Shown here: piece after piece, positions 3,365 to 64,000 of the stretch
Layout: every line of letters begins with the position of its first letter
How positions within the stretch are numbered: the stretch's first letter is position 1
From: a virus
Taxonomy: Duplodnaviria; Caudoviricetes
DNA length: 64,000 nucleotides
Virus record (IMG/VR): IMGVR_UViG_3300011977_000007
Coordinates: 32,001-96,000 of that record
Strand: one strand, 5' to 3'
Notes under the pieces: model-generated
Database searches by the model: none
The model's input: the letters and a program-made list of their open reading frames with translations, nothing else
Told to the model about the DNA's origin: nothing
Translations under genes and position numbers: made by a program

Positions 3365-4420
3365 ATGGCTGTTCATAATTTTGGACCAATATATCATTCT
3401 GAATCACCCAAAAGTATGAAAATGACTGGATGGGTTGATGATGATGGAAATTATTCAATAACTTTTGCTTCTGCATTTACAGATGCAGATAGTAGTTTTA
3501 AGTATTCATGGACAATTTATGTAGGAGCAGACTCTTCAAACCCAGTAATAGAAATTCCTCAGGATACTATTAATAATGATGCTAGTTTTACTAAAACTGT
3601 TACAGGTAAAATAAGTGGTGCTAAATTTCATGCATGGGCTCATTGTGGGTGTGATGGATGTGCTAATAATACTGCACCTTTAGTAATAGCAGATATTAAT
3701 CTATATGTCCCACCAACTTTAGGTACTATAGAAGTTACCAATAGAACTACAAAGTCAATTACTGTTAAGGCTACATGGAATGATGTAAATGGCGAAGAAT
3801 ATACAAAAGCTAATGCTACTATAAAATTAGTAAAATCAGATGGCAATGTTGTTGCTACAAAAACAGAGTATTTAAAAGATGGATCTGATCCTGTTACATT
3901 TGATAATCTAGATCATAATACAGCTTATACTATAAAAGCTTCATTATCAGATGGTACTACTACATTAAATTATACCGATATCACTACAAGTACAAAGTTA
4001 TTAAAAGTAGAATATTCTAATTTAGAAATTCATCAGTATTCAGCTATTGTTAATTTCATATCATCAATAGACAATAAAAAAGAATATGACCAAACAAATA
4101 TTGCAAGGCAAAAATGTAATTTAACGAGTGCTGGTACTACATATAATGATAATATATCTTTTGAAGATGATAAAACAAGACCTGCTAATTCTAAAGTAAC
4201 CATACATGATTTAAAATCATACACTAAATATAATTTAAAGTATGATATAACCGATGGTCATAATATAGTAAGCGTAGCTATTGATTTTACTACAGTATTC
4301 CCTTATGCAAGGATAAATATAAATGGTGAATCTAAAAAAGCAATACCGTATATTTATACTAATAAAAAATGGCATATTGCTAAAGGATATATTGGTAGTA
4401 AAGAATTTAATGGTGAATGA
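3365..4420 (+). CDS. Fibronectin type III-like virion protein
   Basis: FDNLDHNTAYTI and HDLKSYTKY are FN3-like strands; AAGGAG RBS. Confidence 0.55.
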   Translation: MAVHNFGPIYHSESPKSMKMTGWVDDDGNYSITFASAFTDADSSFKYSWTIYVGADSSNPVIEIPQDTINNDASFTKTVTGKISGAKFHAWAHCGCDGCANNTAPLVIADINLYVPPTLGTIEVTNRTTKSITVKATWNDVNGEEYTKANATIKLVKSDGNVVATKTEYLKDGSDPVTFDNLDHNTAYTIKASLSDGTTTLNYTDITTSTKLLKVEYSNLEIHQYSAIVNFISSIDNKKEYDQTNIARQKCNLTSAGTTYNDNISFEDDKTRPANSKVTIHDLKSYTKYNLKYDITDGHNIVSVAIDFTTVFPYARININGESKKAIPYIYTNKKWHIAKGYIGSKEFNGE

Positions 4421-4481
4421 TTGCACCTAAACCTCTGTAATATGCGAACATAAGATTAATTTATGTAGGAGGTGCGATCAA

Positions 4482-6950: not shown

Positions 6951-8182
6951 TGACTAACTGGGCACTTAAATCTAATGGGGCGATTGCCACTGCAGACAAT
7001 TATGGTGATGCGAACGTTCCAGATAACGCAATAAATGGAAGTTTAGTTACTGGAAATAATCATAATTGGTATGGTGGAAATAGATTAATGGTAACCCTAA
7101 ATGGGAAAAAATCAATATCATCAATGAAGATTATGACTACTGATAATTGGGGGGTACATTGTAATACTTTTGATTTATACTATACTTTGGACGATTCCTT
7201 GGATGTAAATTCTGAATTATCTAAATTTAAAAAAGCTGGTACATTCAAATTTAAAAATACAAAGGATACATTAGAAGAAATAAAATTTGATAATAAATTA
7301 ATTGGAAAAAAATTTATGATTATCCCAGAAATACAAAACAATGGTGTAGCTGTAGTTGAATTTGAATTATGGGGCGATGATTTTGTAGGTGTAATATTAC
7401 AATCAAATAAAAACTATTATTCTATAGATGAAAAATATTATAATTCAAGTACAAAAAATTATAATGCAATATCCGATTTAAGCGCTAGTAATTTTAGCAA
7501 TTATGAATTTAATGTTTCTGATTTATTTAATGAAATTACGATTAATGAAGAAACATTTAAACCTATAGATAAATTTAAGAGTTTTTCTATTATATCTACA
7601 AGTCAAAATACATTAACTGTAAATGGTATTAAAGTAGATAAATCTATGATTGCAACTATGGAACCGTTATCTATGGCTGCATATGAAACAATTCATAATA
7701 TTACTGCGGATTATACTACAGAAAATAATGGTGTTATTAAACTTATTTTCTCATTTAATAAGGGTAATACTTGGAAAACGTACGATGTTTCTACTAATGC
7801 ATGGAATACTGTAAGTGTAAATATTCCCACTAAATTATACGATAATTTCACATCAGAAGAGAAATCTAATTGGGATTCTGCTAGAGATACTATATTATCC
7901 GATGGAATATCTGTACAAAATTTAGGAAATGTAGTATTTTCTACAGAAACAATTAAAACTCTTATGTTTGCCATTGCTTTTAGTAGACCTACATATGCTG
8001 ATACTTGCACTTTAAGGGGATTAAATATTAAGTATGATGGTGTAGTTACTTACATTCAGCTTGCTGTTGGTAGTGATTTAACTAAATATGAAGCTAAAGT
8101 AAGAATTACTGGAGATACTATTAGAGTTACAAGTTCTACAAACTGTGATAAATTACTTATTAGTGTAGTAACTAACGTATAA
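6950..8182 (+). CDS. Discoidin/F5-8 type C-like virion adhesion protein
   Basis: NWALKSNGAIATA..P.NAING...EFELWG N-terminal domain; C-terminal half related to the 15236 product (SFNKGNTWKTY vs SKDSGASWQTY). Confidence 0.55.
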   Translation: MTNWALKSNGAIATADNYGDANVPDNAINGSLVTGNNHNWYGGNRLMVTLNGKKSISSMKIMTTDNWGVHCNTFDLYYTLDDSLDVNSELSKFKKAGTFKFKNTKDTLEEIKFDNKLIGKKFMIIPEIQNNGVAVVEFELWGDDFVGVILQSNKNYYSIDEKYYNSSTKNYNAISDLSASNFSNYEFNVSDLFNEITINEETFKPIDKFKSFSIISTSQNTLTVNGIKVDKSMIATMEPLSMAAYETIHNITADYTTENNGVIKLIFSFNKGNTWKTYDVSTNAWNTVSVNIPTKLYDNFTSEEKSNWDSARDTILSDGISVQNLGNVVFSTETIKTLMFAIAFSRPTYADTCTLRGLNIKYDGVVTYIQLAVGSDLTKYEAKVRITGDTIRVTSSTNCDKLLISVVTNV

Positions 8183-8258: not shown

Positions 8259-10781
8259 ATGGCTATTAAGACGGGTGATAATTTCTTATATAGAGGAAAG
8301 AAGCCTTTAGACGATAGAGATAGTTTTGATACGATATCGGATATGATTGCATACGATATTAATTCGCTAGATGAAGGACATATTTCATATTGTAAGGCAA
8401 AAGATAAATATTATAAGTTTAATTCATCTAATGAAGATGATCCTACTACTGGTAAATGGAGAGAATATAATGCCGGTGGTTCTACTATAGATATAATAGA
8501 TGATCTAAATACTCAAAGTGCAATTGCTCCATTATCTGCTAATCAAGGTTATATATTAAGCCAAATGTTTTTAAGCGATTTAAAGTTTAATAGTATTACT
8601 AGGGAAGTTGAACTTATTTCTAAGAATGGTACTAAAACAACTTATTCATTGAAAACCTTTATAGATGATGTTCATAAAACCTTAATGCAGTCTAAAGCTA
8701 TTTATTGCGATAAGTTACCTACATGTGCTCAGGATAGTGATGGTAATTATATAGTTACATATGTAAAAGGTGGTACCACGTTAACAACAAGTGCTGCTAA
8801 TACATGGTTTTATTATAAAGATAATAATAGGGAAGATGTACAAACAATATTCGTTGATGGTGAAGAGATAACGATCCAATCTGGTACTATTGGTGATGTT
8901 GTTGCTATTGATCCTGTATCTAAAAATTGGTTAATTAATGGAGTTGATACTGGGGAATCTTCTAAGGGAGATGCCGGAAAAGATGGTAAATCTATTAGAT
9001 CTATTACAAAAGATGATGAAAATAATATTATTGTTACTTTCAGTGATTCAACAGTACAAAATATTGGTAAATTACAGATTGATATTCAGGGAGATTTCTT
9101 AACTGCTAATGGATTTGGTAATCTTAGGTATTATAATAGTCATTTCCAATATTATGATAAAAATACATCTACTTGGATAGATACTTCTGTCACTCCAGAT
9201 AATGTATATATTATGAATATGACACCACAGGAAATGAAGAAAATTTTTTGTGTGTATGATACAGCTTTAAGTAAATATAAACTTAAATTTAAAGAACCTG
9301 ATGATACTATTATTGATGGTCAAGTTGCTTGCATTGTTGAAAAGGTTATTATTCGTAGGAAACTTGGCTCAGTACCTACAAGTGAAACTGATGGAGAATT
9401 AGTTCTTGAAATAAAACGTAAAGATTTTGGAAGTTATAAAAATGAATATTTTGTAGATACTACTCTCTCACCTTCTGATGGTGATATTTATTATTATAAA
9501 GCATTCCCTATGAGTACAACAGGATTTTATAATACTAATCCTGCTAATGAAACAGATGGCATCAAGTGTAAGAATTATAACTTATATGGATTTAAATTAG
9601 ACCAAAATGAATCTGATCCAAATAGTATGATTACATATTTATCAGATTGTGACAACAAATATTATGAATCTGCAAAAATGAATTATACTGCTGATAAATT
9701 TAATTATGGTGATTGGGCAGATGCATGGTTTATTAAAAATTTGAAGCCTTGTATGCTAAAATATGATGGTACAGTTGATTATGAGTTGAATCCAAATGAT
9801 TATACCAAGAAACTTGATGGCACTGCTTCTGATGTTGCCAATGCTTCTTATGGTGGTAATGCTATGGTTGGTATACCAAAAATATATTGGAAGATCGTAG
9901 ATAATGGTGATAATACAGCCAATATCTATATCTGCGATAAGAAACTTGATGATGATTTTCATTGTTGGTCACATATTGATAATAATGGTAATGAGATAGA
10001 TTATTGTTATATGCCTATTTATAACGGAAGTCTTGTTAGTAGTAAACTACGAAGTTTGTCAGGGAAAACACCAATGGAGAACAAAACTACAACTAATGAA
10101 ATCACTTATGCTAAAGCAAATAACACTGGTTCGGATGTTATTTGGTATACAGAATTGTTTAATGACAGGATGTTAATCAATCTTCTATTATTGCTTATTG
10201 GTAAATCAACTGATACGCAGACTGTATTCGGAACAGGTAATAATAATTCATATGTTTCTACTTCTAATACAGGTGTTAAGAATACAGGTACTATGAATAC
10301 AAAAGGATTATTCTGGGGAAATCAGGATAATGTTAGTGGTGTCAAAGTATTTGGTATAGAACATTGGTATGGAAATATATGGAGACGTATTGGCGGTTGG
10401 ATTAATGATAAAGGCACACAGAAAATCAAGATGACTTATGGACAGTCTGACGGTTCAACATCTGACGGATATAATGAAACAGGTAGTGGATATATTTCTA
10501 TTGATGGTGCTACTCCTAGTGGTACAAGAGGTGGATATATTAGTAAGATGCTAATTACTGATAATGGTTTAATACCTACTATTATCAGTGGAAGTGCTAC
10601 TACTTATTATTGTGATGGATTTTGGTTTAATAATTCGCAAGTTGATTATGCTATGGTGGGTGGCGAATCTAACGACGTTTCTCTTGCGGGTGCGTTGTAC
10701 TCGAATCTCGACGAGGCGGTTTCGTCTGCTGGATGGTACGTCTGTGCTTCCCTTTCTTGTAAACCACTTGCAACAACTTAA
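8259..10781 (+). CDS. Tail fibre/receptor-binding protein with C-terminal C-type lectin (Mtd-like) domain
   Basis: Shared N-module; collagen-like KGDAGKDGK; C-terminal FGIEHWYGNIW...VGG...GA...L...S...ASLSC is typical of CLec-fold DGR targets. Confidence 0.7.
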   Translation: MAIKTGDNFLYRGKKPLDDRDSFDTISDMIAYDINSLDEGHISYCKAKDKYYKFNSSNEDDPTTGKWREYNAGGSTIDIIDDLNTQSAIAPLSANQGYILSQMFLSDLKFNSITREVELISKNGTKTTYSLKTFIDDVHKTLMQSKAIYCDKLPTCAQDSDGNYIVTYVKGGTTLTTSAANTWFYYKDNNREDVQTIFVDGEEITIQSGTIGDVVAIDPVSKNWLINGVDTGESSKGDAGKDGKSIRSITKDDENNIIVTFSDSTVQNIGKLQIDIQGDFLTANGFGNLRYYNSHFQYYDKNTSTWIDTSVTPDNVYIMNMTPQEMKKIFCVYDTALSKYKLKFKEPDDTIIDGQVACIVEKVIIRRKLGSVPTSETDGELVLEIKRKDFGSYKNEYFVDTTLSPSDGDIYYYKAFPMSTTGFYNTNPANETDGIKCKNYNLYGFKLDQNESDPNSMITYLSDCDNKYYESAKMNYTADKFNYGDWADAWFIKNLKPCMLKYDGTVDYELNPNDYTKKLDGTASDVANASYGGNAMVGIPKIYWKIVDNGDNTANIYICDKKLDDDFHCWSHIDNNGNEIDYCYMPIYNGSLVSSKLRSLSGKTPMENKTTTNEITYAKANNTGSDVIWYTELFNDRMLINLLLLLIGKSTDTQTVFGTGNNNSYVSTSNTGVKNTGTMNTKGLFWGNQDNVSGVKVFGIEHWYGNIWRRIGGWINDKGTQKIKMTYGQSDGSTSDGYNETGSGYISIDGATPSGTRGGYISKMLITDNGLIPTIISGSATTYYCDGFWFNNSQVDYAMVGGESNDVSLAGALYSNLDEAVSSAGWYVCASLSCKPLATT

Positions 10782-27939: not shown

Positions 27940-28827
27940 ATGGCAACAGCAAAACAAATTATGGATAAAGCTATTAGTTATGTAGGTACTAAAGAGAAAC
28001 CTGCTAATAGTAATAATGTTATTTTTAACACGCATTTTTATGGTAGATCTGTAAGTGGTATCCAGTATAAATGGTGTGCTGCATTCATATGGGATATTTT
28101 TAGAATGTGCGGGGCTTCTAAATTATTTTATGATGGAAAAAAGAGTGCTTATTGCCCTTCTATTAAAAATTGGGCTGTTAAAAATAAGCTCACGGTAGAT
28201 AAATCTAAAGCTAGATATGGGGATATTGTAATTTTTGATTGGGATCATAATAAAATTCCTGATCATATAGGATTTATTGAGGACTATAAAAATGGAATCT
28301 ATTATACTATAGAGGGTAATACTTCTGTTGGCAATGATAGTAATGGTGGTTGTGTAATGCGTAGAACTAGACTTGCTAATTCTATTTGCTGCGTTATAAG
28401 ACCAAAGTATTCTAATACTAAATCTAAAGAAGTATCTGCAGATAAAGATACCGGTAATTCTAAATCATATATAGGTGATCAGAATTATTATCTTAATAAT
28501 TCTAGAGTTGGTACATGGCAGGCAGCTATGAATAAAGGTTTTGATACTAAGACTCTTACTGTAGATAATAAATTTGGTGCTAATTCACAGGCATTTGCAT
28601 CTACTCATATTCTTTGGTCTGGTCAAGCTCATAACTGTATTACTGCAATCAATTGGCTTAGAAAGACTCTGCATGACGTATATGGATATAAAGAGCTTCC
28701 AGTAACAGGATGCTGGGATGCTACATTAACTAAATATGTAAAGAAATTTCAGAAATCTGTTGGTGAAAAACAGGATGGAAAAGTTGGTCTTATTACAACA
28801 TATCATCTTCTTAAGGGTTCTAAGTAA
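27940..28827 (+). CDS. Endolysin, CHAP domain plus peptidoglycan-binding-like domains
   Basis: WCAAF, GDIVIFDW...DHIGF and TIEGNT; C-terminal FQK....DGKVG..T; late promoter at 27901. Confidence 0.85.
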   Translation: MATAKQIMDKAISYVGTKEKPANSNNVIFNTHFYGRSVSGIQYKWCAAFIWDIFRMCGASKLFYDGKKSAYCPSIKNWAVKNKLTVDKSKARYGDIVIFDWDHNKIPDHIGFIEDYKNGIYYTIEGNTSVGNDSNGGCVMRRTRLANSICCVIRPKYSNTKSKEVSADKDTGNSKSYIGDQNYYLNNSRVGTWQAAMNKGFDTKTLTVDNKFGANSQAFASTHILWSGQAHNCITAINWLRKTLHDVYGYKELPVTGCWDATLTKYVKKFQKSVGEKQDGKVGLITTYHLLKGSK

Positions 28828-28892
28828 TACATAATAGGGTGGTGTTTTACCACCCTATATATTTTTAAATTTATGAAGGGAGATGATTTATA

Positions 28893-31800
28893 ATGGGAAT
28901 TAATGCTCCAAAGCACGTAATACGAAAGCCTAAGCACATTACAAATCCGAAAGACATAGAATATATATTGTCCTTAACAGAGGATGAGGCTGCAGCTAAA
29001 AATACGATAATGGATTTATTTGCCGATTTTGGAGACGGCCCAAGATTTAATACTTATGATATTATAGAAATTCCTAAGGGATCTTATGGTAAAACTAAGA
29101 AGAATAAAAATCAATTTACAACTACAGTTGGATTATATGTATTTAATAAAGGCTGCATAGAAGATATGTCTGATGTACTGGGATATATTAATGAGCCTAT
29201 TACTGCTGATAAGTATGATGAAATAAATGAATTAGTATCATATGCTAAATTGGAAGATAAGATCACTGTACAGCAGTTGAAAGATTTTATAATACAATCT
29301 CAGATTTATATGTCTTGTACTTCAGCATTATCACCATCTCATACAATGGTTCTTCTTTTAATCTCAGATAAAATTGAGGCTAGAAAGAAACAATTATTAA
29401 AAGATAAGTATGGCGAGGCTATAAAGAAGAAAGATATTAAAGCAATGGATGCTCTTGATAAAGAACTTCTTGATTATGCAAAGGAATTATTAAAAGATGA
29501 TCCATCTGTTGATATGTTTAATTCTGGTGCTCGTTCATCATGGGGTAAAATTACTCAGCATATATAGTAATATGTGTGTTTCAATGGGGTTAATTGCAGG
29601 TAATACCTAAAGGCCTTACGCCAAAACGGAATTTGAAAAAATAAACGGTATGGTACGAAAGTAGAAAAAACGTAAGGATGCAATAAGCTGAAATAAAATT
29701 CTATTATAAATTATAATAGATGCTAAGTTGTAATAACAAGGGTTGTTCATGCAGCGAAATACCTAAGTCTATATAGATATGGTAAACGTTCAACGACTAG
29801 CCGATGACGTCGGCGGCTTTGCCTTAATGTAAAACCACAAGTTAATGGTGGAAGAAAAATCCCAGCCCTATAAATATAGGGATGACAAATAGTCTCTGCT
29901 ACTACTTAATCGTAGTGACAACTTGAAATAATATAAGTTGTGTATATAGAGTTGCGTCTATATATAAAGATATAAAAATTATATAATATAAAAATTAAAT
30001 ATAGGTAGATAATTACAATTCTCAAAACACTTCATTAAATCTGTAATGAAAGGTGGTGAGGATCGTGAGTAAAATAAATAACAATAAGCAATATTATAAA
30101 GGTCATAAATATAAAATATACCCAACTGAGGAACAAAAACAAAAGTTGGATAAATTTATAAATCTTTATAGGTACGTTTATAATTGGGCTCTTGCTAAAG
30201 AACAAGAGATATATGAATCTTATAAAAATGGTGAAAGTGAAAAATCATTTTATACTTTCTTTGATTTGTCAAAAATATTTGTACAATATAGAAATTCGCC
30301 TGAAAATAAATGGTTATTAGAATTACCCAACGGTACTGCATGTAATGCGATAAATGAATTGGTTACTGCATATACAAGGTTTTTTAATAATATTAGTGGG
30401 TATCCTAAATTTAAATCTAAGAAAAATTCTAAAAAATCATTTACAACTAGAAATGATAGATTTTATATAGATAAAAATACTGTAAAAATAGAAGGATTAG
30501 ATCTAAATGATAGAATTCAATTAGGGTTTGATTCTGAATATAATAAAGATTCTGTTCATCATAATACAGTTATATCTAAGGATACTATAGGTGATTATTA
30601 TGTGTCATTTTGTACTATTGAAGAAAAAATAGAAATTGATAATTCTGATGGTGGGGTAATAGGTATTGATTTGGGAGTTAGAAATACATTAACAACATCT
30701 GTACCTATTGAAGGTGAATATTTTCATCATCAACCATTTAATAAGATTAGTAAATTAAAACGTAATATATCTAAATTACAAGTTAAAGTATCTCACGATC
30801 AATTACGTAGACTTAATGAAGCAAAACGTACGAAAACCAAGTACGAAGACATACCTAAAAGTAAACGAGAAATTAAGAGAGAAAAAATAATAAATAAGAA
30901 ATACATTAAGATTCATAATATTAAAAATACATATTATGATACTATTATTAAACGTATTATGGATACTAAGCCTAAGGCTGTTGTAATGGAAACTTTTGAA
31001 TATAATAAAATCATACATTCACAAAAATATATGACTAAATATATGGTTGATACTTCATTTTATGATATTACTCAAAAAACAAAGTATCAATGTAATAAAA
31101 GAAATATTCCATTTATTCAGGCACCAGTGCAATATGCATCATCCCAAATATGTAGTAATTGTGGAAATAGGATTAAAATAGGTAATAAAAAGATTTATAG
31201 ATGCCCTATATGTGGTAATACGTTAGATAGAGATCTTAATGCTGCTTATAATCTCGAAGATTTTTATTATGACTATACTGGTACTAATAGATTAGTTGCT
31301 GTAAGTATAGCGTAATTCGTTTACACATTATTTAGGTTAAATAATGAATTTTAATGTACCGAGTTTTACTGTTCTCGGGATGTTAAGATCATTGAGAATT
31401 GTAAGTATATATCATTTATAAGCCCAACCAGCTTAACGTGTGGTATTCACACGGTTGATATATGAATTATGATTTGTTGATATGATAAGTAAATCATAAT
31501 TATATATTTACCTTTATAGGTTTACATATTATATGATTTTAAATACAGTAACAATTTTAAAAACATGTATGTTTCTCGTGGTACTGTTAAATTGACCGAT
31601 GGATCATTTGATATGGTTACTTCATCATATATATCTGGCCTATCAAAAGAAGATCTTGTTAAAGCAAATGATGCTGCTGTTGGTGGTCCTTATAGCCGTG
31701 CTGTAAAAACTAAAGAGGGTGGATATAATGAAAAGAAAATTCTCTATGGATTACAGCATGTAAAAGTATTACCTAAAGGATCTGATTGTGGAACTAATAG

Positions 31801-32527
31801 AACTATAGATGTGACTCTTACTAAAAAGAATATTAAGAATTGGATGTATAGTTTTGTTAAACAAGGATCTAATTTAATAGAAATTACATCTGATACTAAA
31901 GATAAATTTATTGGAAAAACTGTTAAAATGAGATATTTCTCATTATGTGAATCTAAAAATGGAATATGCGAAAAATGTGCCGGAACCTTATTTAATCGTT
32001 TGGGAATTTCCAATGTAGGATTAGCAAGTGATATATTTGGTTCTAGACTAAAGAATACTTCGATAAACTCTTGTCGCTTCATACTGGTAACAGTGTGTAG
32101 AAAATATCTTCTAATTGCTGGAACATGCTAAAGCTCTAATGCCTTAATGGAGAAGAAATTCAGAAATAAGTTTAGAGATGACTCATGGTGAAATAAAAGC
32201 TTATATATCTAATATATAGGTCCTAAAAGTTATTAAAAATGTATAATCAGCAGCGAAGCCTAATAATAATTATTAGGAACGTTCAACGACTATCCCGTTT
32301 GGTGGTGAAATTCCACAATAGGAGTACGGCCTATATGGTGGGTGAGAATCCCTTAAATGGAAATGGAGATATGTCCTCGTATACCTATACGGGGATAGTG
32401 ATATAGTCTATTATCTAGAGAAATACTAGGTCTATACTAGCGTAAAACGTTAGCTGAGAGGAAGAGTTTCCATGTGGCTCAAATTAAATTTTCAGATATG
32501 GATATAGAAGATGCATTTAATTTATAA
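28893..32527 (+). CDS. Phage multisubunit RNA polymerase beta' C-terminal subunit; join(28893..29545,31549..32064,32461..32527), 411 aa
   Basis: Spliced protein has SGARSSWGNNFKN, bridge-helix-like SRAVKTKEGGY, DCGT, C..KNGICEKCAG and trigger-loop-like SMKSFH. Confidence 0.85.
30026..30037 (+). promoter_or_regulatory. Late promoter inside the intron, upstream of tnpB
   Basis: AACA-CTTCAT-TA, about 30 nt before the tnpB start. Confidence 0.7.
30065..31315 (+). CDS. tnpB: TnpB-family RNA-guided endonuclease
   Basis: KYKIYPTEEQK helix-turn-helix, PKFKSKK, RuvC GIDLG / VMET / DRDLNAA, CSNC...CPIC zinc finger; GTG start after AAGGTGG (ORF track start 30053). Confidence 0.92.
   Translation: MSKINNNKQYYKGHKYKIYPTEEQKQKLDKFINLYRYVYNWALAKEQEIYESYKNGESEKSFYTFFDLSKIFVQYRNSPENKWLLELPNGTACNAINELVTAYTRFFNNISGYPKFKSKKNSKKSFTTRNDRFYIDKNTVKIEGLDLNDRIQLGFDSEYNKDSVHHNTVISKDTIGDYYVSFCTIEEKIEIDNSDGGVIGIDLGVRNTLTTSVPIEGEYFHHQPFNKISKLKRNISKLQVKVSHDQLRRLNEAKRTKTKYEDIPKSKREIKREKIINKKYIKIHNIKNTYYDTIIKRIMDTKPKAVVMETFEYNKIIHSQKYMTKYMVDTSFYDITQKTKYQCNKRNIPFIQAPVQYASSQICSNCGNRIKIGNKKIYRCPICGNTLDRDLNAAYNLEDFYYDYTGTNRLVAVSIA
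31316..31548 (+). ncRNA. Putative TnpB omega-RNA scaffold
   Basis: Structured non-coding region between the tnpB stop and the intron 3' end, the expected position for omega-RNA; boundaries inferred. Confidence 0.5.
32065..32460 (+). mobile_element. Group I intron, ORF-less, 396 nt
   Basis: Exon ends ...CGAU, P1 CGAU/GUCG with U.G pair; AAACUCUU pairs with the 3' exon AAGAGUUU (P10); ends in G; splicing gives AT|G in SMKSFH. Confidence 0.92.
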
Positions 32528-33108: not shown

Positions 33109-36100
33109 ATGTATGTAATTAAACGTAATGGAAAGCAAGCAGTTTTTGATAAAACAAAAATTGTAGTGGCAGTCTCAAAAGCCAATAAAGAAGTATTAGA
33201 AAATAAATTATCTGATGATCAGATTAATAATATTGCAGATACTATAGAATCAAGAGCAAAACAATTTTCTAGAGCCTTAAATATAGAAGAAATTCAAGAC
33301 ATGGTAGAAAATCTAATCATGTATTATAATAAGTATGAGGTTGCCAAAGCATACGTATTATATAGATATAAGCAGAAAGAAAATAGAGATAATGGCAATT
33401 TATTTAATAAAGTAAATGCAATTGTAAATAATGAGGATGAGGAAACTAAACAGGAAAACTCAAATAAAGATTCGGATATTATATCTGTGCAAAGAGATTA
33501 TATTGCCGGTGAAGTATCAAAGGCAATGGTTAGACAAGAGAAATATCCTAAATACATTATGGATGCTCATGATGCTGGATTAATTCATGTTCATGATTGT
33601 GATTATAAAATTTGTAAAGAAACTAATTGCTGCTTGGATAATGTTGATGATATGCTTCAAAATAGTACGGTTATTAGTAAAACAAAAATTGATACTCCAC
33701 ATACATTCCCTACAGCGTGCAATATTGCAACCCAAGCAATGGCACAAGTTGCATCTTCGCAATATGGCGGCCAATCTGTATCTCTTTACCATTTAGTAAA
33801 ATTTGTTGAGGTTAGTCGTCGTGCTATTATTAAAGCTGTTGAAGAAGATCATGTACCAGATGAGTATAAACAAGAAGCTATAAATAGAAGACTAAGAAAA
33901 GAAATTAGTAGTGGCATACAGACTATTCAATATCAGATTATTACGCTTGCAACTACTAATGGTCAAGCTCCATTTGTTACTTTATTTATGTATCTTAATG
34001 AAGCAGAAACAGAGCAAGAAAAAGAAGACCTTGCAATGGTAATTGAAGAGGTATTAAAGCAAAGAATCAAGGGTGTTAAGAATAAAAAAGGCGTTTGGGT
34101 AACTCCTGCTTTTCCTAAACTTATATATGTATTAGAGGATGATAATATAACAAAAGATTCTAAATATTTTTATCTTACAGAATTAGCAGCAAAATGTACT
34201 GCAAAGAGAATGGTTCCAGATTATATTTCTGAGAAGAAATTAATAGAATTAAAGTATCCTACAGAAAAACTCTTACATATTAAGGATCGTAGAGATCAGT
34301 GGGGTGATGAGCGTATTTGGGGGAGAAACGTATTTAAAAATGTCACTGATGAGGAATGCAATAAGCTTCAAAATATAGTTGATAATAGATTTAATAAGGA
34401 ATATATTATTCCGGATGAAACTAAAGCTATTATCAAGAAATATGGATTAAAAATGGCTGATATTGTGCCTAAAGCATACCCATGCATAAACAAAACCTGT
34501 GCCTAATATTAGTGATAATATTAGCAAACCTGTCTAAAAGGAGAAAGTCTTAATATACTGACCTGATATTAAGATAACTTACCTTACTAAATTTATATAC
34601 CTATATTATTAGCGCATATATGAAATAATGAAAGGATAAATAATATGTGGGCTGATCTTATAGGATAAGAAAATATATAGATATATAATAAAAGTCTAAC
34701 GACTATCGAAAACGCTGGTATTCGAGAAATACGATATCGGGAAGTGAGTAGAGTAGAGCCATATATTATGATAGAACCATTTATATGGTAGGGTGATGGG
34801 TAGAGTAAACCCCTTTAAATCGAAAAGATAGGATGTCTTATTTTGGTAAAAGAAATAAGCATGTGATATAGTCTAGTTCAGCGATATAATACTCATTTAA
34901 CGTTCTATGTTTAAGTATTATAGCGGCTGGGGGTGTAGGTCCTTCTTAACTCCTGATTACATCCATTATAAAACTTATGGAAGGTTTAATCAGTCAGTAT
35001 GTACTATTAATTTAGTTGATGTAGCATTATCATCACAAAAAAATATTGATGAATTTTGGAAGATATTTGATGAACGATTAGATTTATGCTATGAAGCATT
35101 AATGATTGATCATAATTATCTTATGAAAACACCATCTGATATAGCGCCAATGCAATGGCAAGATGGAAATTTAGCTAGATTGGAAAAGGGGGAAACTATT
35201 GATAAATTATTAGTAAATAATTACAGTACAATTTCCTTAGGATATGCTGGATTATCTGAATGTGTTAGATATATGACAGGTAAATCCCATACAAATTCAG
35301 AAGCTAAGCCATTTGCATTATCCATAATGAGGCATTTAAATGATAAATGCGATGAATGGAGGGAAAAAACAAATGTATCATTTAGTCTTTATGGTACGCC
35401 TATAGAATCGACAACATATACATTTGCTAAAAATCTTCAAAAGAGATTTGGTATCATTAAAGATATAACTGATCGTAATTATATTACTAATAGCTATCAT
35501 ATTCCTGTATTTGAAAAGATTGATGCTTTCAGTAAATTAAAATTTGAATCTGAGTTTCAGGAATTATCTCCAGGTGGTTAAATGAACTTTTACATAGCCT
35601 TAAATAGCCACCTTGAAATTATGTGAACGCTTGATATGCGGTGTAAATAGTTTTATATTATTTGCTAACGGGGGACACTTAAGTGGAAATCCCGTGCCAA
35701 GCCTATAATATTTTATTATAGGAAGGTGTACAGACTAATTTACCCTGGATTTGATCACCAGTGGGAAGTGCATAGGGTGAGAAGCAGAGGTTACCTGCTA
35801 CGCTAAGATATAGTCGGAAGGAGATAAAATTATGTATAAATGTGATATTTGTGGAAGAGAGCTAAAAAAGAAAAATATGCTACATGGATATAATTTATGC
35901 AGTAAACATATGCATCAATTATTAAATCATGGAAAATTTTTAGATAACAATCCAAGAACACAAAATGACTTAAATGGATATAAAATTATTGGTAAAATTG
36001 TAATTTTTGATTTATATGATGGAATATTATCAAATAAAATTAGTGAGTTTATTATTGATTTTGATGATATAGAAATTGTAAAATATCATAAATGGAGACT

Positions 36101-36898
36101 TTCTCATAATCATGTAGTTACTGGATCTGGAGCATTAGGCACACAACGAGAATTAAGTTGGGTTATTATGCATCTTGATAATAGAGATGAGAAAAATAAA
36201 AATATTGTAATCGACTATGTAGATGGAAATCCGTTAAATAATAGAAAATCAAATCTTAGAATATGCACTCAAGCTCAAAATGTAATAAATAAGAAATTTA
36301 TGAGTACTAATACTAATGGATTTATAGGGGTTAGTTATAAGAAAGATAGAAATTGTTATGATCCAGAGATAAGATTAGGATATGTAAGATGCCATTTAGG
36401 TCAGGTAAAATCTATGGAAGAAGCTGTATATAAAAGAATGATAGCTGAAGAGTTAGTTTTTGGAGAATTTTGCAATGAAGCAGAACATAATAAAAAATTA
36501 GAATTTACTAAAAATATTCCATATGAAAGAAAAAAAGAGCTCGAAGAAATCACAAAACAAAAATTGATAGCTAAAGGCCTTTGGCAATAAGCTATGTAGA
36601 AGTTCCAAATATGCAAAATAATATAGAAGCTGTAATATCAGTTATTCAATTTATATATGATAATATTATATATGCTGAACTTAACACTAAGTCTGATTAC
36701 TGTGAAGTATGTGGATATGATGGTGAGATTAAAATTGTTGAAGATGATAATGGTAAACTTGTATGGGAATGCCCTAAGTGCCATAATAGAGATCAGCATA
36801 AAATGTGCATTGCGCGAAGAACATGCGGTTATATAGGTACACATTATTGGAATCAAGGTAGAACTCAGGAAATAAAAGATAGAGTTCTTCATTTATAA
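33109..36898 (+). CDS. nrdD: Anaerobic (class III) ribonucleotide reductase; join(33109..34487,34930..35578,36584..36898), 780 aa
   Basis: ATP-cone MYVIKRNG; QYGGQS; spliced YPCMGCRSFL and LSPGGAISYVE; YGTPIES; glycyl-radical RRTCGYIG. Confidence 0.95.
34488..34929 (+). mobile_element. Group I intron, ORF-less, 442 nt
   Basis: P1 GCAU/GUGC with U.G pair; CTAACGACTATC and GATATAGTC core; terminal G; restores CMGCRS. Confidence 0.92.
35579..36583 (+). mobile_element. Group I intron with HNH endonuclease ORF, 1005 nt
   Basis: P1 GGUGGU/GCCACC; ACAGACTAA and GATATAGTC core; terminal G; restores PGG|AISY. Confidence 0.92.
35832..36590 (+). CDS. Intron-encoded HNH-AP2 homing endonuclease (possibly inactive)
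   Basis: IDYVDGNPLNNRKSNLRICT..QN followed by an AP2-like GFIGVSY...HLG...EEAV..R..AE domain; N-terminal Cys/His cluster. Confidence 0.85.
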   Translation: MYKCDICGRELKKKNMLHGYNLCSKHMHQLLNHGKFLDNNPRTQNDLNGYKIIGKIVIFDLYDGILSNKISEFIIDFDDIEIVKYHKWRLSHNHVVTGSGALGTQRELSWVIMHLDNRDEKNKNIVIDYVDGNPLNNRKSNLRICTQAQNVINKKFMSTNTNGFIGVSYKKDRNCYDPEIRLGYVRCHLGQVKSMEEAVYKRMIAEELVFGEFCNEAEHNKKLEFTKNIPYERKKELEEITKQKLIAKGLWQ

Positions 36899-61046: not shown

Positions 61047-64000
61047 TTATCTCATTGCTTGTAATCTTTTAATTTTAGCAATTTCATCTTCTGTATATTC
61101 ACATAATGATTTCATAGAATTAGCATTAATAATTGTATCTCTAGAATGCATCATATCCATATTACAACGTCCATCATTTTTTGAAATAAACATTTGTCTT
61201 GGAGATATGATATTCTCTGCTGCTTCTATAAATGCTCTTGAATATAACAGAAGGATATTTAATGTGTCCAGTATCTTCACACTAGTCGTTAATTAGTGCA
61301 GTTCTCTTACGAACTTCTATGGTTTTTCTCCATATGTTGAGACTATATCATCATCTCTATGAGATGCTTCTCCACTTCGATTTAAAGGGTTCTCACCTAC
61401 CTACTTAGGCCCTACTCCTGTTGACGAATTTCACGTCCCTTCCGGGGATAGTCGTTGAACTATATTAAAAATATAGCTGCTGATTATACATTGTTAATAC
61501 TACTTAGCACTCTATACAGTATAGAGTTTTTTCTCAGCTTATAGCATCTTAGAACTTGTTTCTGTCTTTCGACTCCTAATTATAGGCATCTAAGCTTTAG
61601 CATTTCCCAGCAATTCAAAGAAGATACTTAATATATTACTATATTAAGCGGCAATACATAATTTACCATCGACCGTAAAACGTAAGCTAAGAGCATACGT
61701 TTTAAATAGACTATATCTTCATCCATTATATGGATGCTTTGCTTTTTGATTTAAATGGCCTTATTGCTGCTTTGCCATACCTATATAATGGGCTCTACTC
61801 TAATAACTTGATAGTCGTTGAACTTTCTATAATAATAACTATTATAGTTTAGCTGCTGATTGTACATTATTAATGAACTTTAGCATTTACATAATTCGAC
61901 ACAGCATTACATAAACTTTTTCTCAGCATAGTTCATCTTTAGAATTTTTTCTATCTTTCGATAACATTCACGCTTATTATTACTAATTACGTTGTAGTTT
62001 CTAAAGCATTAATACCTCCCAGCAATTTACAAAGATTTAACCTATATATTACTATATAAGTGACCCCGATGATTTGTTGAGTCTGCAGCAAGTAATTTTA
62101 ATATTAACAGTGAAATACTCATGGTGTAATCCATATTAATTCCTACAACACGACAAAATAATATTCCTCCGTAGCTAATTGTAGGGTTTCTGTTACAATA
62201 TCTTCACACTAGTCGTTAATTAGCGCAGTTCTCTTATGAACTTCCTAGGTATTTCTCCTAGAGTTGAGACTATATCATTACCCATATATATATATGGGTA
62301 TGCTTCCACTTCGATTTAAGAGATTCTCACTCACCTACTTAGGTCCTACTCCAATTGACGATTTTCACGTCCCGTATAGGGGATAGTCGTTGAACGTTCC
62401 TAATAAAATATATTAGGCTTCGCTGCTGATTATACATTGCATAATACCTTAGGACGTATCTATTTTATAAATACGCTTTTATTTCACCATAGTACATCTC
62501 TTCTACTTGTTTCTATCTTTCGATACCTTATATATTATATAGGCTAGAGAGCTTTAGCATTTCCCAGCAATTCAAAAGCATTCGTACACCATATTACTAT
62601 GATATACGGACTAACGTTAATCAGTACAGGTAATCCGCCATCTGAATCTTTAATTAAACCATCTATAATATCATAGACAATCTGATCAAATCCAATCTGT
62701 GCTTTATACCATTTCTTATATGCATCTGCATATGAAAAATTATAAGTCCTTACAAGTATATTAATTATTACCTGTTGTAATAATTCACATAAGCCATGAT
62801 ATGGTAATTTTACCTGATCTGGCATTAAATGTACATCTTGTCTAATAACCGAACGGCTACTAAACGAGTCGGCGGGTTCACATAGGTCGTTAATCTATGC
62901 AGTTTTCTTATGAACTTCTCTAGGTGTTACCTAGAAGCCCAGACTATATCACATACCTTATCTTATAAGGCATCTTTCTTTTTCGATTTAAGGGGTTCTC
63001 ACCCACCACTTGGCCCTACTCCTGTTGGCATTTTATTAAGGGCTGCCCAATGGGATAGTCGTTGAACGTTCCTAATAAAATATATTAGGCTTCGCTGCTG
63101 ATTATACATTGCATAATACCTTAGGACGTATATCAATATATACGCTTTTATTTCACCATAGTACATCTCACTAATTATTTCTATCTTTCGATGCCCTATA
63201 TAGAAGAGGGATAGTGAGCTTTAGCATTTCCCAGCAATTTAAAAAGATTCACGCACTATATTGCTATAATACGTGGGCTGATGATAGTTAACCTACCCAT
63301 TTTGTTCACATAGGTCGTTAATCTATGCAGTTCTCTTATGAACTTCTCTAGTTTTTCTCTAGATGATCAGATTATATCATTATACTTTATTCAAGTATTC
63401 TTCCACTTTGATTTAAGGGATTCTCACCCACCACTTGGCCCTACTCCTATTGCTGAATTTCACAGCCCTTCCGGGGATAGTCGTTGAACGTTCCTAATAA
63501 GATATTAGGCTTCGCTGCTGATTATACATTATACGTTATTTAGGACGTATATAATATATACGCTTTTATTTCACCATGTAACATCTCTCTACTTGTTTCT
63601 GAATTTCTTCACCTTATTATAGGCTAGAGAGCTTTAGCATTTCCCAGCAATTCAAAAGATTATTCGACACTGTGTTACCACAATGAAGCGGCTTAGATAC
63701 AAACCGATCGAAGATCTTAAATCTCCTTTTTTACCTTCAAGAATTTCTTTAAGCTCAGTATATAAAGCATTAAATTCAACCTGAATATCGTATAATACTT
63801 CATATTTATTTTTCTTTTGTCTATCTGGTACTAATTTATCATTATTAGCCTGATATACTAAATGAGCTAAAAGATTATAATTCTCATTAGTTTTTTCATA
63901 TTTAAGACTACCAGCATTATCCAATTTGGTAGGTCTTAATAATGTAGTAAATACAGGAATGGATTGAGTAAATACAATATCTTTATGACGCATTATATCA
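61047..64000 (-). CDS. Phage multisubunit RNA polymerase beta' N-terminal (catalytic) subunit, 5'-truncated; exons 64000..63703, 63297..63291, 62869..62620, 62195..62080, 61672..61665, 61268..61047
   Basis: Spliced protein reads GKKGDLRSSIGGRYSFSSRSVI, VLINRNPTI and LAADFDGDTLN; all exon phases are consistent. Confidence 0.92.
61269..61664 (-). mobile_element. Group I intron E, ORF-less, 396 nt
   Basis: P1 UGGU/GCCG, terminal G; splice GGT|GAC (Gly|Asp of DFDGD). Confidence 0.9.
61673..62079 (-). mobile_element. Group I intron D, ORF-less, 407 nt
   Basis: P1 GACU/GGUC, P10 CAUCG/CGAUG, terminal G; splice T|TC (Phe of DFDGD). Confidence 0.9.
62196..62619 (-). mobile_element. Group I intron C, ORF-less, 424 nt
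   Basis: P1 UACUGAU/GUCCGUA (one mismatch), terminal G; splice AT|T restores INRNP. Confidence 0.9.
62870..63290 (-). mobile_element. Group I intron B, ORF-less, 421 nt
   Basis: P1 GUAGGU/GCCCAC (one mismatch), terminal G; splice gives T|AC (Tyr). Confidence 0.85.
63298..63702 (-). mobile_element. Group I intron A, ORF-less, 405 nt
   Basis: P1 CGGU/GCCG, terminal G, conserved core. Confidence 0.9.

Follow-up and report, generated by a model that had tools for sequence, protein, structure and literature searches.

What is a gene for the RNA-guided nuclease TnpB doing inside a group I intron that splits a phage RNA polymerase gene, and how could such an element spread if no transposase gene, tnpA, comes with it? 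The question arises from a 64 000-nt stretch, here called the window, of the tailed-phage record IMGVR_UViG_3300011977_000007 in IMG/VR (positions 32 001 to 96 000). The source record (G000) is 110 kb long, about 35% complete according to CheckV and about 30% G+C. A sequence-only reading of the window had described a group I core, a 416-aa TnpB with a D/E/D triad and a zinc finger, about 230 nt of structured RNA and then the 3' exon, and had called the whole a homing intron rather than a transposon. All of these parts proved to lie where they had been placed (table 1). The distinction that had been drawn does not hold, because the element is an IStron, and IStrons, which are transposon-intron chimeras, have been known since the years 2000 to 2014. 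Judged by its sequence, it is a tnpA-less IStron of group B (the IS607 type), in the tnpB-only variant that ends in CAG, and as such it is of a known kind. As an explanation of the locus as a whole, we consider it moderately likely that intron, tnpB and guide RNA are fused into one element that spreads by RNA-guided homing.

The element is a single inserted unit that comprises the group I core, TnpB and some 230 nt of structured 3' RNA. The 265-kb contig L003 (98% complete), which is about 97% identical to the window in exon 1, lacks it: the alignment runs over window positions 28000-29548 and then goes straight on to 31550-32067, skipping the insert. The empty site of L003 reads TCATCATGGGG/AAACAACTTC (the slash marks the junction; a longer reading is TCATCATGGGG/AAACAACTTCAAAAAC), and its equivalent in the window is TGGGG/element/TAACAATTTTAAAAAC. 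When the exons of the window are joined, the same protein results across the junction as in L003, with SGARSSWG-NNFKNMY restored and the frame exact. The sequence SGARSSWGNNFKNMY is also restored exactly, and the ends of the element are the splice sites, as they are in group B IStrons. The earlier suggestion to look among related phages for alleles without the intron and without tnpB was followed and yielded six empty alleles, in L003 and in five other IMG/VR contigs; the L003 genome has no tnpB. All six retain TGGGG and show two to four differences, at wobble (synonymous) positions, from the predicted guide described below. A scan of IMG/VR for the junction between exon 1 and the intron returned no second copy with the element.

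Neither of the two exon open reading frames (ORFs) that flank the insert has a Pfam match. The intact L003 homologue of the split gene matches phrog_2962, annotated 'RNA polymerase beta subunit' (9e-64), with further matches to chain D of the AR9 non-virion RNA polymerase (nvRNAP; 7S00_D) and to residues ~710-945 of bacterial beta-prime. Because of the matches to 7S00_D and beta-prime, the host gene is, by homology, the C-terminal beta-prime-like RNA polymerase subunit of a jumbo phage. The insertion point lies in the SGARxx motif, immediately before the bridge-helix region.

A sister element was found at 2529-4445 of L007, which comes from a 313-kb phage genome that is complete and bears terminal repeats. 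It is collinear with the element of the window and encodes a TnpB that is 45% identical to the one studied here. It splits a different polymerase gene, that of the beta subunit (phrog_3295), in the GDK...GGKG catalytic region, where it follows CGGAG and has GCAG at its end; no insertion is present at the beta-prime site of that genome. The two elements share a variant 3' architecture.

The 5' 400 nt of the element align throughout with the introns of CbISt3 (from phage c-st), L007 and L008, the last of which is certified by Rfam with 59.8 bits. RNAalifold identified 16 compensatory pairs in P3, P6 and peripheral hairpins, and P7 (GUUCAACGACUA with AUAGUCU) and P8 are discernible by eye. In the fold of P1, exon GGG (29543-29545) pairs with the internal CUC (29554-29556), so that G29545-C29554 stands at the splice junction; in L007, exon GAG pairs with the same CUC. 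A G-C pair at this junction of P1 has been described for group B IStrons (PMC4227781, PMC13565253), which further insert after GG, own the first U, have an unusual G at the exon end and possess very long AU-rich inverted repeats round the ORF (PMC4227781). The insertion reads TGGGG/UAAAAU here and the empty sites read TGGGG/N, in line with the group B site. Two long-range AU-rich helices enclose tnpB (table 1). The inner one has a counterpart of different sequence in L007 (2966-2978 with 4315-4327, 13 nt, 92%), and the outer one is replaced there, at the same distance from the 3' end, by a GC-rich pair seen by eye (GGCTCCCG at 2950-2957 with CGGGAGCC at 4431-4438). Within the 5' arm of the inner helix, 13 of the 16 bases at 30013-30028 (TTACAATTCTCAAAAC) match the predicted guide. 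We judged this likeness to be chance, as nothing similar occurs in L007 and the sequence is AT-rich.

The tnpB frame is intact and open over 30053-31315. The true start is probably the GTG at 30065 behind AAAGGTGGTGAGG, which was chosen because P0001, a protein 98% identical to the TnpB of the window, starts likewise. Pfam assigned the domains Cas12f1-like_TNB (8.9e-18) and HTH_OrfB_IS605 (2.7e-14), with OrfB_IS605 below the cut-off, and the best match in the PDB was the IS607-type TnpB 8IAZ (E 7e-30). In an alignment of 36 sequences, with relatives of 41-98% identity, the RuvC residues D202, E309 and D390 and the four zinc-finger cysteines (CxxC...CxxC) are invariant. P0001 stands for a cluster of 28 member sequences from other assemblies; P0002 and P0003 are about 70% identical to the TnpB of the window and P0004 and P0005 about 60%. 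Many relatives with 35-71% identity are located on contigs of 150-313 kb (P0002, P0003, P0037, P0053, P0060, P0069, P0076, P0083, P0086 and P0112), a setting that suggests that jumbo phages commonly carry this TnpB clade. With P0002 as the query, a scan of viral contigs gave no match, and profile scans of metagenome and genome contigs with generic patterns gave relatives of at most 34% identity among the matches listed. TnpB is the only long ORF of the element, and no protein homing endonuclease of the LAGLIDADG, GIY-YIG, HNH, His-Cys or PD-(D/E)xK kinds was found among its ORFs.

The absence of tnpA, noted in the sequence-only reading, agrees with searches of the whole 110-kb record, which contains one tnpB and no transposase of the serine (PF00239) or Y1 (PF01797) type. 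PF00239 was likewise absent from the 98%-complete relative G001 and from G004, the complete genome that carries the L007 sister element. The spacing between the ribozyme and tnpB leaves no room for tnpA.

Downstream of tnpB, the region 31300-31548 folds with -57.7 kcal/mol (z -3.4 against shuffled sequences). The loop of its first hairpin (ACUGU, 31368-31372) can pair with the terminal ACAG of the element (31545-31548). This pairing covaries among three sequences compared by eye, with CUGU/ACAG in the window, CUGCU/AGCAG in L007 and CGAUAC/GUAUCG in c-st, and it corresponds to a published pseudoknot from the nexus to the 3' end. The pairing therefore places the predicted scaffold end at the splice site and the start of the guide at 31549. 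It also bears on a different reading of the locus, that of an independent insertion sequence nested in an older intron, which we rejected, in agreement with the earlier view of the element: the entire unit is missing from the near-identical L003, the sister element in L007 is collinear over its full length, and the loop-to-end pairing puts the end of the scaffold at the splice site.

The guide start at 31549 and TGGGG as the target-adjacent motif (TAM), both proposed from the window alone, gain support from comparison. In CboIStron the TAM is TGGG and the guide is the flank of the right end, with splicing in competition with guide-RNA formation (10.1101/2023.11.20.567912), and the TAMs of IS607 TnpB proteins are AGGAG or GAGGG (PMC11061315). 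The 5' flanks are similarly G-rich in both elements studied here, TGGGG in the window and CGGAG in L007, and the loop-to-end pairing recurs in L007 and c-st. The only perfect match to the predicted guide in the 110-kb record is at the element's own junction, where it is preceded by ATACAG, which is not a TAM. Of the 18 relative loci with tnpB that were searched, 17 have RAGATH-18 3' of that gene; it is missing from the window and L007. The first hairpin and the GGAUGUUAAG-type motif that follows it are kept despite this loss, and a diverged equivalent of RAGATH-18, seen by eye only, is possible at 31386-31471.

Table 1. Features of the IStron and its host gene in the window (nt, nucleotides; RBS, ribosome-binding site).
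Feature	Position	Strand	Basis
Exon 1 of the RNA polymerase beta-prime-like (C-terminal half) gene, ending ...SGARSSWG(G)	28893-29545	+	ORF list; L003 homologue
TGGGG: 5' flank, predicted TAM and P1 5' strand	29541-29545	+	sequence; kept in 6/6 empty alleles
Whole IStron, 2003 nt, first base U, end ...AUACAG	29546-31548	+	absent as a unit from L003; exon joining restores the frame
Group I (IA2-like) core	29546-29930	+	sub-threshold Rfam match; alignment with CbISt3, L007 and L008; compensatory pairs; P1 fold
Core landmark: internal guide CUC	29554-29556	+	alignment
Core landmark: P3	from ~29586	+	alignment
Core landmark: J6/7-P7, GUUCAACGACUA	29788-29799	+	alignment
Core landmark: P7 3' strand, AUAGUCU	29889-29895	+	alignment
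Core landmark: P9	~29897-29920	+	alignment
Outer long-range AU-rich helix, 5' arm	29975-29994 (with 31521-31540)	+	inverted repeat I6, 20 nt, 85%
Inner long-range helix, 5' arm	30006-30025 (with 31392-31411)	+	inverted repeat I4, 20 nt, 90%
tnpB, 416 aa, GTG start (probable), RBS AAAGGTGGTGAGG just upstream	30065-31315	+	Pfam, alignment, PDB match; start by comparison with P0001
Structured 3' RNA, predicted omega/reRNA scaffold, overlapping the intron 3' strands and terminal G	31316-31548	+	fold
First 3' hairpin (CCGAG-loop-CUCGG, then GAUGUUAAG), nexus-like stem-loop of the predicted scaffold	31359-31378	+	conserved in L007, c-st and L016
Predicted guide/target TAACAATTTTAAAAAC, first 16 nt of exon 2	31549-31564	+	analogy with CboIStron and ISFba1
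Exon 2 of the same RNA polymerase gene	31549-32064	+	L003 alignment, reading frame
Second group I intron, classical, without ORF, in the same gene; 5' exon end U, intron end G	32065-32460	+	frame and L003 protein; bounds approximate

How would an element built in this way be maintained and spread? In the pre-mRNA of the RNA polymerase gene, the two nested long-range helices would seal off the 1.5-kb tnpB insert and position the terminal G (31548) at the ribozyme core. The intron would then splice after the exon G that is paired with the internal CUC, with ...CAUGGGG/UAACAAUUUU as the predicted spliced junction, and the polymerase subunit would be made. TnpB would be translated from the same transcript or from the excised intron, and would bind the 3' ~190-230 nt as a guide RNA that continues past the right end into exon 2 (guide TAACAATTTTAAAAAC...). 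The complex would cut TGGGG followed by the guide sequence, the state of the intron-less allele in co-infecting phages that are very close relatives, while the element's own allele would be spared because ACAG stands in the place of the TAM. Repair of the break by recombination, with the intron-carrying genome as template, would then transfer the element and part of the adjoining exon into the cut genome. Splicing, guide-RNA processing, the TAM, cleavage and homing are all inferred from the sequences.

The pattern of divergence from L003 gives a hint of such an event, within the gene only. Within 150 nt of the insertion, 25 of 300 sites differ, against 32 of 872 elsewhere in the gene (Fisher p 0.003); for the downstream side alone the counts are 17/150 against 12/369 (p 0.0006). 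Most of the differences are synonymous. Clustered differences are what would be expected from co-conversion with a diverged donor. The position of the sister element, in another ultra-conserved RNA polymerase motif (GDK of beta), is a further point in favour of homing.

Several observations weigh against this account. Measured against the whole 9-kb alignment, over which divergence is uneven, the divergence of the flanks is not significant (p 0.15). There is no perfectly matching empty target among the six empty alleles found: against the predicted guide, L003 has mismatches at positions 1, 7 and 10 (p 0.04 for at least three mismatches in 16 nt at the gene-average divergence) and the other five have two to four. 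Given this lack of a perfect target, TnpB may cut the known relatives poorly. RAGATH-18 (RF03064) was not matched in the window, either at the gathering score or at E 10, and because it is the conserved core of IS607 guide RNAs, the guide RNA of this element could be impaired. The predicted pseudoknot amounts to 4 bp only inside the element. As for the ribozyme, its Rfam match of 29.7 bits (29696-29917) is under the gathering score of 50 and came from a 461-nt search only, with none at the gathering score, nor at E 10 on 3.3 kb. Finally, the record holds about 35% of the genome, so tnpA may exist elsewhere in it.

With these points in mind, the element could be viewed as a stranded, non-autonomous transposon, which entered in the IS607 manner with a serine TnpA provided in trans by the host or another element and which persists only by splicing, while TnpB would at most restore it after rare excision and would not be what spreads it from phage to phage. 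The G-rich target and the ends of the element fit IS607-type insertion (PMC4227781; 10.1101/2023.11.20.567912), tnpA-bearing IStrons exist in phage c-st, and the occurrence of relatives in different genes (beta-prime here, beta in L007) needs a mechanism of relocation. However, the core dinucleotides differ between the left flank (GG) and the right end (AG), and in the cited work a mismatch of this kind was reported to block excision by serine TnpA. The lack of tnpA in two near-complete related genomes also argues against a stranded transposon, as does the full conservation of TnpB, which implies use, and the divergence of the flanks suggests entry by recombination. We therefore regard this history as unlikely.

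An active nuclease might also serve a different end, with TnpB and its guide RNA acting mainly to destroy co-infecting intron-less genomes, to the benefit of the carrier phage, and conversion being a minor outcome. Exclusion of competitors is a known effect of phage homing endonucleases (PMC13565253), the targeted gene is essential, and the TAM is kept in every empty allele found. All of these alleles nevertheless carry guide mismatches, some of them near the TAM, which would make the natural competitors found so far poor targets, and we think a role of this kind very improbable. It is equally hard to credit an inert relic, in which the ribozyme still splices but decay of the guide RNA has left TnpB without guided nuclease activity. 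The failure to match RAGATH-18 even at E 10, though most relatives have it, and the short pseudoknot would fit such decay, but the catalytic and zinc residues of TnpB are invariant, the ORF is intact and the clade spans 41-98% identity. The conserved first hairpin and GGAUGUUAAG-type motif, with a 3' architecture common to L007, point instead to a scaffold that has diverged and been maintained.

The element has in common with the group B members BcISt1, CbISt1-4 and CboIStron of Clostridium botulinum BKT015925 the 5' IA2 core (with homology to CbISt3), the GG site and the first U, the exon G paired to an internal C, the AU-rich helices round the ORF, a TnpB of IS607 type, a guide-RNA region, predicted here, that overlaps the 3' splice site, and element ends that are splice sites. 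It differs from them in having no tnpA, in its CAG rather than CGG end (the 3' terminus is ACAG here and GCAG in L007), in the undetected RAGATH-18 core and in a TnpB only about 30% identical to that of c-st; its host is an uncultured jumbo phage and its target the phage's own RNA polymerase gene. CbISt3 and CbISt4 reside in the C. botulinum phages c-st and D-1873 (PMC4227781). In c-st (L002, 3464-5951), CbISt3 is flanked by the small ORF CST134 and the tape-measure gene CST131 and ends in ...CGUAUCGG; tnpA and tnpB are both downstream of its intron, and a hairpin loop CGAUAC is complementary to the terminal GUAUCG.

CsISt1 of Clostridium sporogenes (Tourasse 2014, PMC4227781) resembles the element, by its published description, as a tnpB-only group B outlier with a CAG end. 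Its insertion after AG sets it apart from the element of the window and is matched in L007 (GGAG); it further differs in being chromosomal and 2369 nt long. The tnpA-less state is shared with the published CsISt1 and CdiIStrons. The IS607 TnpB of ISFba1 (PMC11061315; 8IAZ) has the same RuvC triad; its 5' TAM is G-rich and its guide lies 3' of a scaffold of ~190 nt with pseudoknots, as is predicted for the element; ISFba1 has no intron, in contrast, and RAGATH-18 is present. Phage homing introns such as T4 td with I-TevI and the AR9 RNA polymerase intron with its HNH protein are likewise self-splicing introns in a conserved motif of an essential phage gene, with plus and minus alleles among close relatives and flank divergence suggestive of co-conversion. 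Here, unlike in those introns, the ORF is TnpB, is placed at the 3' end and is enclosed by long-range helices, and the target would be set by the flanking exon rather than by the protein.

Introns are frequent in this phage. The second group I intron of the polymerase gene (table 1) is missing from L003 and was not reported by Rfam at the gathering score. Rfam does report three group I introns on the minus strand of the window, at 61317-61674, 62245-62641 and 62920-63300. Over the 110-kb record, 11 copies of the P7 motif GTTCAACGACTA are present, and the phage is therefore unusually intron-rich. A 17-nt intron-core motif, ACGAAAGTAGAAAAAAC, was present in more than 117 viral contigs of IMG/VR, and a tnpB match lay within about 1 kb downstream of it in some 6 of the 117 fetched loci (L251-L367); IStrons thus make up a minority of such phage introns. 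The window and L003 also differ by further segments that only one of them has: about 1 kb (35579-36583) occurs in the window and not in L003, while about 350 nt (7678-8029) and about 450 nt (9736-10190) occur in L003 and not in the window. These are probably additional mobile introns, or endonuclease genes, in the vicinity of the ribonucleotide reductase genes.

How much of this is new? The novelty implied by the sequence-only reading has to be narrowed. IStrons are already in print for phages c-st and D-1873, as is the tnpB-only CsISt1 (PMC4227781), and a 2026 review proposed that tnpA-less IStrons could spread via TnpB-driven intron homing (PMC13565253). Phage IStrons, tnpB-only IStrons and the concept of homing are thus all published. 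What is added here is the failure to find tnpA in the record or in two near-complete related genomes, the sister element in the beta gene of L007, and the empty alleles that combine TGGGG with two to four guide mismatches.

The locus offers a natural test set, made up of the allele with the element, a 97%-identical empty allele, and empty alleles that keep the TAM and differ at wobble positions only. A guide-RNA scaffold too diverged for the RAGATH-18 model to match would also be of some interest for the range of TnpB tools. More tentatively, the tnpA-less IStrons of this TnpB clade might form a phage lineage that no longer transposes and spreads among jumbo phages purely by RNA-guided homing into ultra-conserved glycine-codon (GG) sites of RNA polymerase genes. 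Synonymous changes among the 16 nt of the target would then confer natural resistance, and the matching flank would travel with the element by co-conversion; we put this forward as a possibility rather than as the expected outcome. If TnpB does drive homing here, the element would be a natural example of an intron whose mobility is set by RNA from its flank in place of a protein endonuclease, in lytic-type jumbo phages without a transposase.

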